In this document: piece after piece, positions 3,003-18,495 of the stretch | Layout of the letters: each line of letters begins with the position of its first letter | How positions within the stretch are numbered: position 1 is the first letter of the stretch | Virus record (IMG/VR): IMGVR_UViG_3300032227_000840 | Coordinates: 1 to 31,912 of that record | Reading direction: 5' to 3' (one strand) | Origin: a virus | Taxonomy: Duplodnaviria > Caudoviricetes | Length of the DNA stretch: 31,912 bases | Translations under genes and position numbers: made by a program | Notes under the pieces: model-generated | What the model saw: the letters and a program-made list of their open reading frames with translations, nothing else | What the model was told of the DNA's origin: nothing | Database searches by the model: none

Positions 3003-3371
3003 ATGGCACTACGGACCAGCATGGAAGCGATCGAGGCCATGCCGATCTTCGCCAAGGCGAAGCCGGCGGCCGTCGGCCATGCCGCGGCCGAGGCCTGCGC
3101 GGCGAAGGCCGAGCGGACGACCGCGTTCGACGCCGGCCGGGCCAGGGCCGCTGTGCTCGAGGTCCTGGCGGACGGCCAGGCCCGCAGCGGCGAGCAGCTC
3201 GTCGATCACTGCCAGCGGATCGGGATAGTGCCACATGACGCGAGAGCGTTCGGGGCCGTGTTCGGCAAGCTGAAGCGGGACGGGCTGATCGAGGAGGCCG
3301 GGTTCGTCGCCAGGTCAAAGGGCCACGGGACGAGCGGTGGGCGGCTATGGAGGGCCACGCATGGCCGGTGA
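3003..3371 (+). CDS. Putative winged-helix DNA-binding protein
   Basis: Starts MALRTSMEAI right after the upstream stop. Helix-helix-wing pattern AVLEVLADG..SGEQLV..FGAVFGKLKRDGLIEEAG..LWR. Confidence 0.6.
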   Translation: MALRTSMEAIEAMPIFAKAKPAAVGHAAAEACAAKAERTTAFDAGRARAAVLEVLADGQARSGEQLVDHCQRIGIVPHDARAFGAVFGKLKRDGLIEEAGFVARSKGHGTSGGRLWRATHGR

Positions 3372-4221
3372 ATGGATTCCCTACGACGTTTGCCTACCCC
3401 AGAAGCCCGAGGTCCTGGACCTCGTCGACCGGACCGGCCTCGAGGTCGACCAGGTCGTCGGTCGGCTTCTGATGCTATGGGGATGGTCGGCACTGAACAG
3501 CTCCGACGGGTCGGCCCGGATGTCGCTCCGGCTCCTGTCGAAGGTCTGCGGGGGCGACGAGGCGTTCTGGTACGCGGTCCAGGAAGTCGGCTGGCTCGTG
3601 ATCGACGCGGAAAACGGAACAGTTGGTATCCCCGGATGGGACGCCAGGTTCTCAAAAGCCGCTAAATCAAGGGCCATGGCGACCGTCAGGCACCAGGTCG
3701 ACAAGGTTGGGGGCGCTACGCGCCCCCAGCGGGGGCGCGTAGCGCCCCCAGCCGGGGCGCAGCGCGCCAGAGAGAGAGGAGATAGAAGTTCTTCTTCTTC
3801 CCCCGGGACGGCTGAGCATGGAGACCAAGAGCCGGGCGACTGGGAGGCCCTGCGGAAGGCCTGGCAGGCCGGCAAGGGCCGCCCGTGGAATCTGCCAGAC
3901 CCGCCAGACAAGGCCGCCGACCGGCTGGCCGAGCCCGGCTGGTACGCGAAGGCCCTGGCGGCGATCGAGGCCCTCCCTCGCTGCCGCTACTTCCGCGACC
4001 CCGTGACGCTGCCGCAGCTCGTCGCGCCGGGATTCGTCGACAAGGTCCTCGGGGGCCAGTTCGACAACGCGAGGGATCACGCGCCGGCCCGCGGCGGCTA
4101 CCGCGGCGGCCAGGAAGACCGGCCGCCTCCGCAGGCCTGGTCGGGGAGCGACGCTGCCGCCTTCGAGGCGACGAAGCGGAAGCTCGCGGATCAGATCAGG
4201 TCACAGGAGGGCGCGGCGTAA
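3361..4221 (+). CDS. Phage replication initiator protein
   Basis: N-terminus MAGEWIP..LPQKPEV..VVGRLLMLWGW resembles lambdoid-prophage initiators. The central linker is encoded by ori-like repeats. GGAGG RBS. Confidence 0.7.
   Translation: MAGEWIPYDVCLPQKPEVLDLVDRTGLEVDQVVGRLLMLWGWSALNSSDGSARMSLRLLSKVCGGDEAFWYAVQEVGWLVIDAENGTVGIPGWDARFSKAAKSRAMATVRHQVDKVGGATRPQRGRVAPPAGAQRARERGDRSSSSSPGTAEHGDQEPGDWEALRKAWQAGKGRPWNLPDPPDKAADRLAEPGWYAKALAAIEALPRCRYFRDPVTLPQLVAPGFVDKVLGGQFDNARDHAPARGGYRGGQEDRPPPQAWSGSDAAAFEATKRKLADQIRSQEGAA
3708..3807. other. Putative replication origin within the initiator gene
   Basis: Perfect 20-bp inverted repeat (3708-3727/3731-3750), followed by a purine tract AGAGAGAGAGGAGATAGAAG and a pyrimidine tract TTCTTCTTCTTCCCCC. 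Confidence 0.55.
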
Positions 4222-4448
4222 TGGGACGACCACTCAACACCGGATCGGAGCCATGGGTCGATCCTGCCGAGGACGCCGCGAGCATGTCGAGTCTTCGGCT
4301 CGCTCCGGCGATCGAGGCCGAGGCCCGCAAACTCCGCGATGCTCACATCGGGCGACGCATGGCCGAGACCGAGGAGGCCGCGAGCGCGAAGATCGCGAAA
4401 TGGGCCGCCGGGATCTGCCGGCCACGGAGCGGAGGCCACAGGACGTGA
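4221..4448 (+). CDS. Hypothetical protein (MGRPLNTG...GGHRT)
   Basis: TAATG overlap with the initiator stop; AGGAGG RBS. Confidence 0.65.
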   Translation: MGRPLNTGSEPWVDPAEDAASMSSLRLAPAIEAEARKLRDAHIGRRMAETEEAASAKIAKWAAGICRPRSGGHRT

Positions 4449-4451
4449 GCG

Positions 4452-4541
4452 AGAGAACACGCAGGATCAGGAGCATCGCATGAGTGACGAAACGAAACCG
4501 CAGGACTCGGCAGCGATGTCTCCTGCATTCGCTGGTTCTCA
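4452..4541 (-). other. attC-like site 1
   Basis: Minus strand: TGAGAAC-CAGCG-AATGCAGG-AG-A-CATCGC...GCGATG-CT-CCTGATC-CTGCGT-GTTCTCT. This gives 7-5-8 / 7-6-7 box spacing with two unpaired bases on one arm. Confidence 0.8.
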
Positions 4542-4779
4542 GCCTGTAGCGTGGCGTGTCTATTCCGACGACGGCAGCGAGGCTGTCTACTCGCTTTACG
4601 AGCAGGCCCGCGCCGCAGCGGACGAATGGAACTGGAGCGTAGAGCCGCTCTACCGCCACCCGCGCCCAATGCTGACAGATAGAGAGATTGAAGCCCTTGA
4701 GTGGGCTGCAATAACTGCCAGCGAATCACTGGGGCACGCCGAAGCGATTCGCGGATTGCTTGAGCGATTGGATGACTGA
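4480..4779 (+). CDS. Cassette-borne hypothetical protein with LTD.E.EA...LLERL C-terminal motif
   Basis: AGGAG RBS and ATG lie inside attC-like site 1; sequence MSDETKPQDSAAMSPAFAGSQPVAW... Confidence 0.75.
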   Translation: MSDETKPQDSAAMSPAFAGSQPVAWRVYSDDGSEAVYSLYEQARAAADEWNWSVEPLYRHPRPMLTDREIEALEWAAITASESLGHAEAIRGLLERLDD

Positions 4780-5008
4780 TATGCGAGACGGGATACAGTG
4801 GTACGAGTTTCTTATTGCAGCAACTGTCTGCCCTGCGTCGTTCTTCTGGTCTGTGTGGCTTATTGGGTGGCTGACCAACTCAGACCCGCTGATTGAAGAA
4901 ATATGGCGGCTGCGAGGGCAAAACTCCGTGCTGCGCGAGCGGCTGGAGCAACTGGAGGGCGAGCGGCGGCGAGATGCAGATACGCTTCGCAAGGTGATCG
5001 GGAAGTGA
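4772..5008 (+). CDS. Cassette-borne membrane protein with coiled coil
   Basis: Hydrophobic FLIAATVCPASFFWSVWLIGWL followed by a heptad-like tail. The stop TGA forms part of the next core site, TGAGAAC. Confidence 0.65.
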   Translation: MTDMRDGIQWYEFLIAATVCPASFFWSVWLIGWLTNSDPLIEEIWRLRGQNSVLRERLEQLEGERRRDADTLRKVIGK

Positions 5009-5030
5009 GAACGCGTAGGATCAGGAGCGG
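5006..5030 (-). other. Truncated attC-like site (one arm only)
   Basis: TGAGAACGCGTAGGATCAGGAGCGG matches the left arms at 4453 and 5424; no partner arm follows. Confidence 0.65.
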
Positions 5031-5155
5031 TTGCTCCGCTGTATCGCCAGCCGAAACTCACCGACGCGGAGCAGAGGGCGATTGCGGTGGCGATTGTAGG
5101 CTCGCTTCCGTCTTACGCCGCCACGCTCCGCAACCTTTTGGAACGTATGACGTGA
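5030..5155 (+). pseudogene. 5'-deleted remnant of an LTD-motif cassette gene
   Basis: The frame reads VAPLYRQPKLTDAEQRAIAVAIVGSLPSYAATLRNLLERMT*, has no start codon, and is paralogous to the C-termini of 4480-4779 and 5182-5424. Confidence 0.65.
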
Positions 5156-5181
5156 CGCTCTAGAAAATCAGGTGCAGACAA

Positions 5182-5424
5182 ATGAGAGACAGCGAAATCA
5201 TTGCCATGCTCAAGAACGACTGCCCAATGTGCGGCCCCGCTGACTGCGCGTGCACGGCTACTGAGCAGGATCAATACAGAGAGATACAACGCCTGCGGCT
5301 CACCGACGAGGAGCGGGAGGCGATTGAGTTGTCGGCAGGCGACTACCTCTACCACCAAGACGCTGGAGGCCGAGCGCAGTGGATTCGGAAAACGCTGCTA
5401 GGGTTACTGGAACGACTGAAGTGA
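5182..5424 (+). CDS. Cassette-borne hypothetical protein (CxxCxxxxCxC plus LTD motif)
   Basis: CPMCGPADCAC and LTDEEREAIE...LLGLLERLK. The stop is embedded in TGAGAAC of the next site. Confidence 0.75.
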   Translation: MRDSEIIAMLKNDCPMCGPADCACTATEQDQYREIQRLRLTDEEREAIELSAGDYLYHQDAGGRAQWIRKTLLGLLERLK

Positions 5425-5510
5425 GAACGCCCAGGATCAGCGGCAGCGATGAAAGGACTCACTATGCTTAAAGACTATGCAACGCTGTCCGCTGCATCCG
5501 TTGGTTCTGC
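5422..5510 (-). other. attC-like site 2
   Basis: Minus strand: GCAGAAC-CAACG-GATGCAGC-GG-A-CAGCG...CGCTG-CC-GCTGATC-CTGGGC-GTTCTCA. Same spacing and same unpaired G and A as site 1, with compensatory stem changes. Confidence 0.82.
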
Positions 5511-5901
5511 CTGCTTTGAGTGCGGCGGTCTTGCCGACGTTGAGCATCACGTTGTTCCGAGATCACGAGGCGGCACGAAGACGGTGCGGCTGTGCGAGGA
5601 TTGCCACGGCAAGGCGCACGGAAGGGCGATGACCACGAACGCCCTCACGCGAGAGGCTCTTGCTCGCAAGCGGGCGAACGGCGAGCGAACTGGGCAGACT
5701 CCATTTGGGTTTGACCTCGCCAGCGATGGCCTGACGCTGATTCCCAACGCCGGCGAGCAGGAGTCGTTGGGTGTTATTCGGGGGCTGCGAACACAGGGAA
5801 TGACCCTTCGGGAGATTGCGGCTGAGATGAATCGGCGAGGCATCCGAACGAAAAAGGGCGGGCCTTGGGTTCATTCGACGATCCAGAGGATTGTCGGCTG
5901 A
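5464..5901 (+). CDS. HNH domain fused to a serine-recombinase-type DNA-binding 'recombinase' domain
   Basis: CFEC..HHVVPRSRGG..LCEDCHGKAH, then PFGF..IPNAGEQ..GMTLREIAAEMNRRGIRTKKGGPWVHSTIQRI. Start at 5464 (AAGGA RBS) or 5449, both inside attC-like site 2. Confidence 0.8.
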   Translation: MLKDYATLSAASVGSACFECGGLADVEHHVVPRSRGGTKTVRLCEDCHGKAHGRAMTTNALTREALARKRANGERTGQTPFGFDLASDGLTLIPNAGEQESLGVIRGLRTQGMTLREIAAEMNRRGIRTKKGGPWVHSTIQRIVG

Positions 5902-5904
5902 CAT

Positions 5905-6039
5905 AGGCAGAACCAGTGATTATGCGGACCCGGATATTCACCAATAACACGCCGTCCAGCCGCATATCACGCCGCCGATTCGCGCCACACGGCCGCTAGA
6001 CGCTGATCGCCGCCGCTATCGTGGTCCGCATAACACGCC
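5905..6039 (-). other. attI-like site
   Basis: Minus strand GCATAAT-CACTG-GTTCTGC (7-5-7 simple site), preceded by three direct repeats (plus strand ATA[A/T]CACGCC at 5944, 5964 and 6030). Confidence 0.6.
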
Positions 6040-6103
6040 TCGGTGATTCCATTGAATCCGCCCTCCACAGACCGCCAATAGACTCGACCGCGGAGGGCCA
6101 CGG

Positions 6104-6403
6104 ATGGCTTGTCTTCACCTGACGACCGAGCAGCTCGAGAAGGAGTTCGTCGCCGTGTTCGGCGACGGGGTCGCCGTGCCGACGAAGCTGTGGGTCGACC
6201 ACTTCCACGATTACCACACGTTCATTCGCGTCGTCTTCCCGAAGTTCACAGGGAAAGGGGCCGACCGGCTCCAAGACCTCCGCGACCGGCTGATGATCAA
6301 GTACGGATTCAAGCGGGCCGAGCTGTCGATCGTCGTCTTCATGGACGACGACTCCTACGACTTCTTCGCAGCCCACCGGCTCCACATTCACCTCGCCGGT
6401 TGA
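6104..6403 (+). CDS. Hypothetical protein
   Basis: GGAGG RBS, 99 aa, phage-like codon usage. Confidence 0.75.
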   Translation: MACLHLTTEQLEKEFVAVFGDGVAVPTKLWVDHFHDYHTFIRVVFPKFTGKGADRLQDLRDRLMIKYGFKRAELSIVVFMDDDSYDFFAAHRLHIHLAG

Positions 6404-6427
6404 TTCGCAGGGCAGGAAATCTACGGT
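6400..6427 (+). promoter_or_regulatory. Sigma70-like promoter candidate
   Basis: TTGATT-N16-TACGGT; the same architecture recurs at 27943, 30795 and 31379. Confidence 0.4.
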
Positions 6428-6450
6428 GAAGGTCCGCATGGAGGCGGATC

Positions 6451-6894
6451 GTGGAGTTCACCGTCGAGATACCAGGCGAAGCCGTTCCGCAGCCGCGGGC
6501 ACGAAGCACCCGCGGCGGTCGCATGTACACGCCGGACAACGGGATCGTGGCGTTCAAGCAGGCGGTCGGCCTGCTCGTGAAGGCCGAGGCGGCACGGCGG
6601 AGGATCTCACTGGACGATTCCTCCGCGTTCGTCCTCGAGGTCGTCTGTGTGTTCGGCCGCCCACTTTCCCACCTGACCACCTCGGGCGATCTGCGGACGA
6701 CGGCTCCGGCCTGGCCGGGCCTGCGGTGTGGCGACTGGGACAATCTCGCGAAAGGCGTCGCGGACGCGATCACGAAGACCGGGGCCGTGTGGAAGGACGA
6801 CTCGCAGGTCGTCGAGGGCCGCTGCCTGAAACGCTACGCGATTTGTGGGGAAGGACCGCGGACAGGGATCACGATCCGGAGGCTGCCTCCGTGA
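6451..6894 (+). CDS. rusA: RusA-family Holliday junction resolvase
   Basis: PQPRAR N-terminal motif, DWDNLAKGVADA and WKDDSQVV catalytic Asp motifs. Confidence 0.9.
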   Translation: MEFTVEIPGEAVPQPRARSTRGGRMYTPDNGIVAFKQAVGLLVKAEAARRRISLDDSSAFVLEVVCVFGRPLSHLTTSGDLRTTAPAWPGLRCGDWDNLAKGVADAITKTGAVWKDDSQVVEGRCLKRYAICGEGPRTGITIRRLPP

Positions 6895-17724: not shown

Positions 17725-18495
17725 ATGCGGTCCGCCATCGTCTGGATGATCTTCGCGGCGTCAGCCCTCGCGGCTGACTGCGGCGTCTGCCAAGGTACGC
17801 GGACCGTCGGCCGGGTGCCGCTGTTCTATCCGTGCCAGGCCTGCCAGGGGACCGGAACGACGGCCGACATTCCGTCAGAAAAAACTAGCAGTATTCCTGA
17901 CCGAAAGCCGGGCCAGCCGCGGCCGTCCGTCTGCCGCGTCGTCTGCGGAGTCGGAGCTTCGCTCGAATGTAGTAGCGGCGTCCTCGTTCGCGTCAGTGGC
18001 ACGTCGGGCCTGGTCCTCACCGCGTGGCACTGTGTCCGCAGCAACCGTGACGCGGTCGACGTGTCGTTCCCGGACGGGCTGACAACCCGGGCCCGCGTTG
18101 TCGCGTGGGACCAGGACTGGGACCTCGCGGCCCTGGTCGTCGGCAGGCCAGACGCCGAGCCCGTGGCGATCGCCGCCCAGGCCCCGCGGCTCGGTGACCC
18201 GCTGACGATCGCCGGCTACGGCCCGGCCGGCGTCTACCGCGAGCAGACCGGGAAGGTGACCGACTACGGGTCACCAACCCGGAAACATCCAGCCCAGTTC
18301 GTCGAGCTCGAAGGGGCCGCCCGGCATGGCGACTCCGGCGGACCGATCTTCGACCAGGCCGGAGAGCTTGCCGGCGTCCTGTTCGGGGCCGCCCGGAACC
18401 GGACGATCGGATCCTGCTCGACGCGGATCGCCCTGTTCCTGGCCGAGGCCGACCGGAAGGCACCGGTCGCGACGCTCTGCGAGGTGCAACCGTGA
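17725..18495 (+). CDS. Trypsin-like serine protease with signal peptide and CxxCxG zinc motifs
   Basis: LTAWHC, WDLAAL and GDSGGP triad motifs; MRSAIVWMIFAASALA signal; CGVCQG and CQACQG. Confidence 0.92.
   Translation: MRSAIVWMIFAASALAADCGVCQGTRTVGRVPLFYPCQACQGTGTTADIPSEKTSSIPDRKPGQPRPSVCRVVCGVGASLECSSGVLVRVSGTSGLVLTAWHCVRSNRDAVDVSFPDGLTTRARVVAWDQDWDLAALVVGRPDAEPVAIAAQAPRLGDPLTIAGYGPAGVYREQTGKVTDYGSPTRKHPAQFVELEGAARHGDSGGPIFDQAGELAGVLFGAARNRTIGSCSTRIALFLAEADRKAPVATLCEVQP

Follow-up and report, generated by a model that had tools for sequence, protein, structure and literature searches.

An integron-type cassette with a leading attC hairpin, next to an attI-like site in an integrase-less array of a tailed phage

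The window analysed here, i.e. the whole stretch of 31,912 nucleotides of the IMG/VR record IMGVR_UViG_3300032227_000840 (Duplodnaviria; Caudoviricetes), has direct terminal repeats and counts as a complete virus record, in which terminase, portal and capsid genes were found. Between its replication initiation gene (3337-4221) and its RusA gene (6451-6894) lies an array of integron-type recombination sites, which runs in the sense of the surrounding genes and has a GC content of 58-61%, compared with about 67% around it. The array comprises two complete attC sites and a truncated one, and no gene for an integron integrase (intI) was found. It therefore falls under the definition of a phage CALIN (cluster of attC sites lacking an integron integrase), i.e. 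at least two attC sites without intI. The subject of this report is the last unit of the array, a likely mobile cassette of 485 bp on the plus strand (5428-5912), in which an attC hairpin is followed by a gene body and which has an AA/C crossover, the slash marking the exchange point, at either end. Directly behind it lies an attI-like site (5913-6034, plus strand).

The hairpin belongs to attC site 2 (5421-5512). Its left half consists of the R′ core (5421-5428), a 6-nt spacer (5429-5434), the L′ arm (5435-5448) and the loop (5449-5482), and its right half contains an unpaired T (5488), an unpaired C (5495), a 5-nt spacer (5499-5503) and the R″ core from 5504 onwards. The site thus shows the marks of an attC, namely inverted AAC and GTT cores, a hairpin whose unpaired bases face the cleaved AAC from the other arm, and a central spacer that is likewise unpaired. 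The folding energies are by themselves modest, with -17.6 kcal/mol (z -2.2) for site 2 and -18.8 kcal/mol (z -2.4) for the distal, complete site 1 (4451-4541, plus strand). We have called attC sites with our own arm-pairing finder, which makes no use of the outer stem. Among 171 phage sites the unpaired C is kept in 169 and the unpaired T in 167, and the outer stem, compared in 149 sites, is paired to 89% as against 55% in shuffled sites (maximum 62%), with several pair types per column. On an attC site's bottom strand, the cleaved AAC and the unpaired bases occupy opposite arms (Nivina 2016, PMC5027507; here and below, statements on cited papers refer to the accessible parts of their texts). 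Core complementarity is compatible with either polarity. Since the unpaired T and C sit on the 3′ arm, the plus strand is read as the bottom, i.e. recombining, strand, and the crossover points are placed at 5427/5428 and 5912/5913. When pairs sharing a gene body but with unlike upstream neighbours were compared, the body retained its upstream hairpin in 23 of 37 cases, against a background of 12%. Together with the strand evidence, this retention defines the unit as hairpin plus body.

Integron cassettes restore full complementarity of their cores when they are circular. The first-pass annotation of the window had recognized such a footprint here, claiming that the inverse core of site 2 (GTTCTGCCT, 5504-5512) matches its present partner (GTGAGAAC, 5421-5428) over only 5 bp and is a perfect complement of AGGCAGAAC (5905-5913) at the other end of the cassette. 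Both statements are correct, including all coordinates, and the 9 bp of the second pairing are contiguous. The far-end core, which is at the same time the R box of the attI-like site, is invariant in five out of five aligned copies. Taken as a single case, a chance match has a probability of about 2%, as a pairing of at least 9 bp with 5504-5512 is given by 3 of the 89 distinct cassette ends, among them its own. A second example given in the annotation, 7 bp between GTTCTCA (4535-4541) and the core at 5006-5012 versus 6 bp with the present partner GAGAAC (4453-4458), is true in its counts but weak: it does not discriminate, because TGAGAAC is a common core of the family and 5422-5428 also pairs over 7 bp with GTTCTCA at 4535-4541.

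For a broader comparison cassette bodies were clustered, units of more than 1,300 bp being excluded to limit missed sites; some loci lacked full flanks. In the 89 resulting phage clusters the pairing in the circle is longer than the present one in 64, equal in 15 and shorter in 10, with means of 7.37 bp and 5.15 bp, respectively. Shuffling of the phage clusters gave a mean of 5.03 bp and a maximum of 5.52 bp, so that none of 10,000 shuffles reached the observed value. The 72 clusters from bacterial genomes behave alike (55 longer, 10 equal, 7 shorter; none of 10,000 shuffles reached their mean), which confirms in host arrays the general rule from which the annotation had started. The pairing footprint is ordinary integron biology, found in host arrays too.

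The boundaries of the unit are borne out by its copies. A search for the same 485-bp unit in other contexts, which the first-pass annotation had proposed, yielded four other contigs with 91-97% identity, namely three viral loci detected by protein search (L001, L002 and L003) and a metagenome contig detected by a DNA scan (L212). In all of them the identity stops at the AAC cores and the neighbours differ; the homologues break at these cores and not at unrelated boundaries, and the proposed extent of the unit and the attI-like nature of its right-hand neighbour hold. The terminal attI-like site comes next in the window, L001, L002 and L003, each time in another version; the unit precedes an attC arm in L212 and in a contig of sequencing run X4, which covers positions 5471-5913 only. 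The same edge is seen in 54 pairs in which one cassette end is joined to different next sites: 9-10 of 10 positions are identical up to the AAC, but beyond it the identity drops at once to about 4 of 10. In 23 of these 54 pairs an attI is compared with an attC as the following site. The 6-nt spacer varies between copies that are otherwise 97% identical. The high identity across unlike phages fits a recent spread. The annotation had also named the unit the newest cassette of the array. This may be so, judging by its position on the attI side, but re-insertion would yield the same picture, the unit is internal in two of six contexts, and adjacency to attI is not significantly enriched (4/6 contexts versus 26/89, p 0.064). 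One further locus, L213, matched the 21-nt end pattern and was dropped, its flanks being unrelated to the cassette. In L051, homologues of two modules of the window occur in reversed order.

The site on the right begins with the C of the crossover, followed by a 5-nt spacer (CAGTG, 5914-5918), an L-box-like ATTATGC (5919-5925) and, at fixed distances, short repeats (5932, 5962 and 6028), and it has no partner GTT core. This pattern recurs in 60 viral loci, every time with a sharp left edge (GAA/C) and with many different genes upstream. The layout agrees with the plan of attI1, which comprises an R box, an L box and two repeats (PMC12901181). We also looked at ten host intI loci, four of which had no usable upstream attC. 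The remaining six have, between the attC array and intI, a site with AA/C, 5 nt and ATTAT- or ATTAG-like letters, i.e. with the geometry of the phage site. In geometry and position the right-hand site is attI-like, which makes it a candidate attI. It folds on the minus strand (z -2.5). An 11-bp inverted repeat (5920-5930 and 6023-6033, about 90 nt apart) is kept in only some relatives. A scan of 4200-6500 that covered sigma-70-like promoters only gave no site, and the genes face away from the sense of a Pc promoter.

It is important to note that the cassette of the window departs from the usual layout, in which a gene on the top strand precedes its attC, for its gene lies on the bottom strand and is predicted to start within the attC. 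This arrangement prevails in the phages. Taking the longest open reading frame (ORF) as a measure of orientation, which is crude in GC-rich DNA, we place the gene on the attC bottom strand in 72 of 89 phage clusters, versus 11 of 72 genome clusters (Fisher p 1e-17); in the other 61 clusters from host genomes it is on the canonical strand. The stop codon lies at most 12 nt from the next AAC in 65 of the 72 inverted phage clusters. In 49 of the 72 the ORF starts within the attC, and 43 of these 49 share one frame, with leaders ending in ASxGS. Among the 171 phage sites, the loop contains an ATG in 134 and an AGGA or GGAG in 118. At least ten different bodies stand behind one and the same hairpin type, some of them with methyltransferase-like motifs as judged by eye. 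The hairpin type of the window is found ahead of proteins of 234-560 aa that resemble DNA methyltransferases by motif only (L042 800-2480, L228, L229 and L254). Remoter relatives of the cassette protein (P0003, P0007, P0008 and P0009) carry N-terminal leaders of about 20 aa with other sequences, which possibly derive from other attC families.

The cassette gene (5464-5901, plus strand) encodes an HNH-like zinc module fused to a DNA-binding domain of the serine-recombinase type. Its likely start is the ATG at 5464 in the attC loop, 6 nt after an AGGA. A further ATG lies upstream in the same frame at 5449, but 5464 is preferred because L212 and L003 have lost the ATG at 5449 and yet keep that at 5464. 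The product matches the Pfam family Recombinase (E 4e-6), and the match to HNH (PF01844; E 0.004) remains below the cut-off with 17.7 versus 21.4 bits; 17 of 19 family members match HNH with E values of up to 0.01. A pattern of CxxC, HH and CxxC-H-xxx-H is invariant, or nearly so, across the 19 aligned proteins. It is shared with free-standing phage HNH endonucleases (PF01844) that carry a DNA-binding domain; here, however, the HNH score is sub-threshold, the partner is of the serine-recombinase type, and nuclease activity is predicted at most. A structural model of the 145-aa protein has a mean pLDDT of 85, with residues 1-18 below 50, and its best structural matches are recombinase domains of serine integrases (E 6e-4). 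Since the catalytic domain of serine recombinases is missing, the product is unlikely to move the cassette itself. We confirmed 89 stretches of this HNH-recombinase family in viral contigs. In several members the protein begins with a Met or Val that closely precedes the first Cys; the body in the window has no in-frame start ahead of this Cys and relies on the loop ATG. This suggests that a phage gene may have been packaged through fusion to an attC leader. Of the 55 distinct loci of the family, 2 gave an attC with a strict finder, though this finder is insensitive and missed the site of L338.

As to the enzyme, TIGR02249 (integron integrase) matches none of 43 phage records, 13 of which are at least 90% complete, and no viral locus was matched in a tblastn search with host IntI. 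The intI gene that adjoins the array in a complete integron was thus not detected here. The only tyrosine recombinase detected in the phage (29701-30627, minus strand; PF00589, phrog_1) has an excisionase-like neighbour. It was rejected as an IntI, for it does not match TIGR02249 and has a gap where IntI carries an insertion. Because no integron integrase was found in the 43 phage records, the likeliest enzyme is a host IntI acting in trans. A precedent is provided by phage attC sites that recombine with IntI1 in E. coli (Qi 2023, PMC9892861). The attC pattern points to Planctomycetota as hosts, as 69 of 78 distinct genome loci with this pattern carry that label among the matches listed (80 rows of 134 loci). 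Of 151 genomes from the order to which genome G046 belongs, 22 have an IntI over the cut-off, as do two of five hand-picked genomes. When the phage integrase was used to look for prophages in 301 genomes, 12 matches resulted, the best with 42% identity; the search had no control phylum and was too weak for a host call.

Taken together, the findings show 5428-5912 to be a discrete cassette of an integrase-less array, and we regard it as likely that it entered as a circle at the attI-like AA/C by means of the integron integrase of a predicted Planctomycetota host. The recombining form would be the folded plus strand of the attC. On excision, 5905-5912 would be joined to 5428 in a circle, which restores the core pairing of 9 bp, and new cassettes would enter at the AA/C of the attI-like site. 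Lying in the sense of the phage early genes, the array would be transcribed towards attI. Each attC loop would contribute a ribosome-binding site, an ATG and a short leader that stays unfolded, all in a fixed frame; any body could thus remain translatable behind any hairpin. The cassette on the attI side would be the latest one placed there, by new capture or by re-insertion.

Several observations weigh against this reading. In 14 of the 37 pairs, L003 included, the same body stands behind another hairpin, and plain bottom-strand recombination fails to explain these changes. They could be due to occasional top-strand excision, which occurs at a low rate at some attC sites (PMC5027507), or to homologous exchange. 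The two junctions that the first-pass annotation had predicted fared differently. The circle junction has no match in viral contigs. Logan contigs of 7 of the 22 runs contain neither the joint from 5912 to 5428 nor that of the empty site from 5427 to 5913, but such contigs drop rare forms and are uninformative on absence. The empty-site junction does occur in three viral loci, in one of them with a terminal site that is 93% identical over 131 nt; all three junctions, however, stand behind other genes, so that none represents an isogenic empty allele. In 401 genomes from the phylum that includes G046, the phage attI pattern was matched four times, versus two for the control; all four matches lie within genes, are read as due to chance and have no adjacent attC or intI. 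In 17 of the 89 phage clusters the longest ORF follows the canonical orientation. Planctomycetota are predicted as hosts from the attC type, and an IntI was found in only 22-27 of the 151 candidate host genomes. Finally, the tyrosine recombinase family PF00589 is matched in 12 of 13 near-complete phage records (27 of 39 records in all). Beside these points, we noted the same body in frame behind different hairpin types in L003 (3972-4050), L042, L265, L296, L220 and L274, with the apparent swap at the GTT end.

The frequency of PF00589 speaks for an alternative in which the cassettes are real but are moved by the phage's own tyrosine recombinase, besides or instead of a role in lysogeny. Its alignment retains the catalytic residues R, HxxR, H and Y. 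Nevertheless, we consider this improbable, for the protein is devoid of the stretch inserted in host IntI, adjoins the excisionase-like gene and matches the phage integrase family phrog_1. It is also encoded about 5.6 kb away from the array in the window and outside the fetched flanks in the records compared by coordinates, and the complete record G031 contains an array but gives no PF00589 match.

A different explanation would need no site-specific recombinase, as the sites could be inherited integron remnants with shared boundaries, between which modules are swapped by homologous recombination via a Sak4-like annealase. An ORF at 462-1376 indeed matches the Sak4-like family, and the swapped hairpins in 14 of 37 pairs favour homologous exchange, as do the unlike spacers of nearly identical copies, an internal module repeated in cassette bodies, and the lack of intI in the phage records searched. 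Yet the right boundary is shared by attI-like and attC neighbours that have the core alone in common, 167-169 of 171 sites retain the unpaired bases, the stems covary, and exchange within the hairpins would not yield bodies with complementary ends. It is thus an unlikely account of the array.

An assignment of the plus strand as top strand, with a unit that spans 5505 to about 6030 and whose own attC is the right-hand site, would suit the 9-bp complementarity equally well, give the gene its usual sense and accommodate the 11-bp inverted repeat and the minus-strand fold, but it was rejected as very improbable, since it puts the unpaired bases on the wrong arm, assigns an attC without GTT partner core, disagrees with bodies that keep their upstream hairpin while the downstream sequence changes freely, and conflicts with host arrays in which the same hairpins have their genes on the other strand.

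Within the reading that favours a host integrase, one may go a step further, albeit tentatively and with a rather low expectation of being right: planctomycete phages may possess a cassette system of their own that runs on the host integron integrase, with a phage-specific attI and with attC hairpins as interchangeable translation-start modules of one fixed frame. Cassettes would then arise by in-frame fusion of a hairpin to the 5′ end of a pre-existing phage gene that loses its start, like the HNH-recombinase gene of the window, and occasional top-strand excision would swap the hairpins. The HNH-recombinase cassette offers a handle on such a genesis, given that several relatives have their own ATG shortly before the first Cys and the gene in the window has an in-frame fusion to the attC leader. 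If the hairpin fusion is read correctly, a route of cassette genesis becomes visible.

The unit would work like an integron cassette, and its array is a CALIN and not a complete integron. Attachment site clusters in phages are already known, as Qi 2023 (PMC9892861) described 17 phage CALINs and found IntI1 active on five of six sites taken from virulent phages. The window shares with them at least two attC sites, the absence of intI, small genes of unknown function, methyltransferase-like cargo (here in relatives) and a probable dependence on bacterial IntI. In the accessible text those arrays have the typical layout or divergent sites, and an attI is reported only for host-derived integrons. 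In contrast, the phages studied here have an attI-like family in 60 loci, most genes inverted, and many hairpin starts in one frame. The sedentary chromosomal integrons of Planctomycetota carry sites of the same attC family (with an AAC-to-GTT distance of mostly 77-80 nt and unpaired T and C), the same attI geometry and the same restored core pairing; they differ from the phage platform in that intI lies beside attI and the genes are canonical (61/72), whereas the phages lack intI and have inverted genes (72/89). With class 1 cassettes (PMC5027507, PMC12901181) the unit shares a crossover placed within the bottom-strand AAC and an opposite arm that bears the unpaired bases, and its attI-like site resembles attI1 in having an L box, an R box and upstream repeats. 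Here, however, the first unpaired base of the bottom strand is C and not G, no Pc-like promoter was detected, and the gene reads towards attI instead of away from it.

An inverted layout is not described in the accessible parts of Cury 2016 (PMC4889954), Ghaly 2021 (PMC8618304), PMC13492144 and 10.64898/2026.09.14.751636, and our literature search, which was thin on subscription journals, brought up no publication that describes inverted cassettes with a start in the attC, nor one on an attI family of phages. The interest of the system lies in its location, i.e. in a widespread phage platform that has its own attI-like site but no integrase, and whose mostly inverted genes would start in the recombination hairpin. 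If host IntI drives this platform, phages would exploit a stress-linked recombinase of the host to reshuffle accessory genes, including methyltransferase-like genes in relatives, and one cassette chemistry would operate in phages and hosts with opposite gene polarity.

The platform as a whole, i.e. the array together with the attI-like site (4446-6052, plus strand), is missing as a single block in close relatives. The joint from 4445 to 6053 was seen in runs X2 and X8 and in contig L416, and in these relatives without platform the flanks meet at a common TGA. L244 has the same left flank as the window and different cassettes. The loop of site 1 contains the ATG of an ORF at 4480-4779, according to its translation. 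The truncated attC (5005-5035, plus strand), of which only the left arm is left, heads a degenerate second cassette (5012-5427). At 5015-5035, the 21 letters of the window are replaced by 205 in a contig of run X4, and in relatives a full attC or an attI-like site follows the same gene end. A possible decayed half-site (5155-5180; GTGACGCTCTAGAAAATCAGG), which the arm-pairing finder did not detect, precedes an ORF at 5182-5424. An Rfam scan gave two matches, both due to chance.

Many cassette bodies have an internal module LTDEEREAI and the end LRGLLERxK in common, which in the window occur at 5057-5092 and 5299-5334 and also near 4672. The LTDEEREAI module is very abundant in lake metagenome contigs, and homologous exchange between cassettes could conceivably take place through it. 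Outside the platform, the interval from the prohead protease region to the major capsid gene holds a gene for a trypsin-like peptidase (17725-18495).
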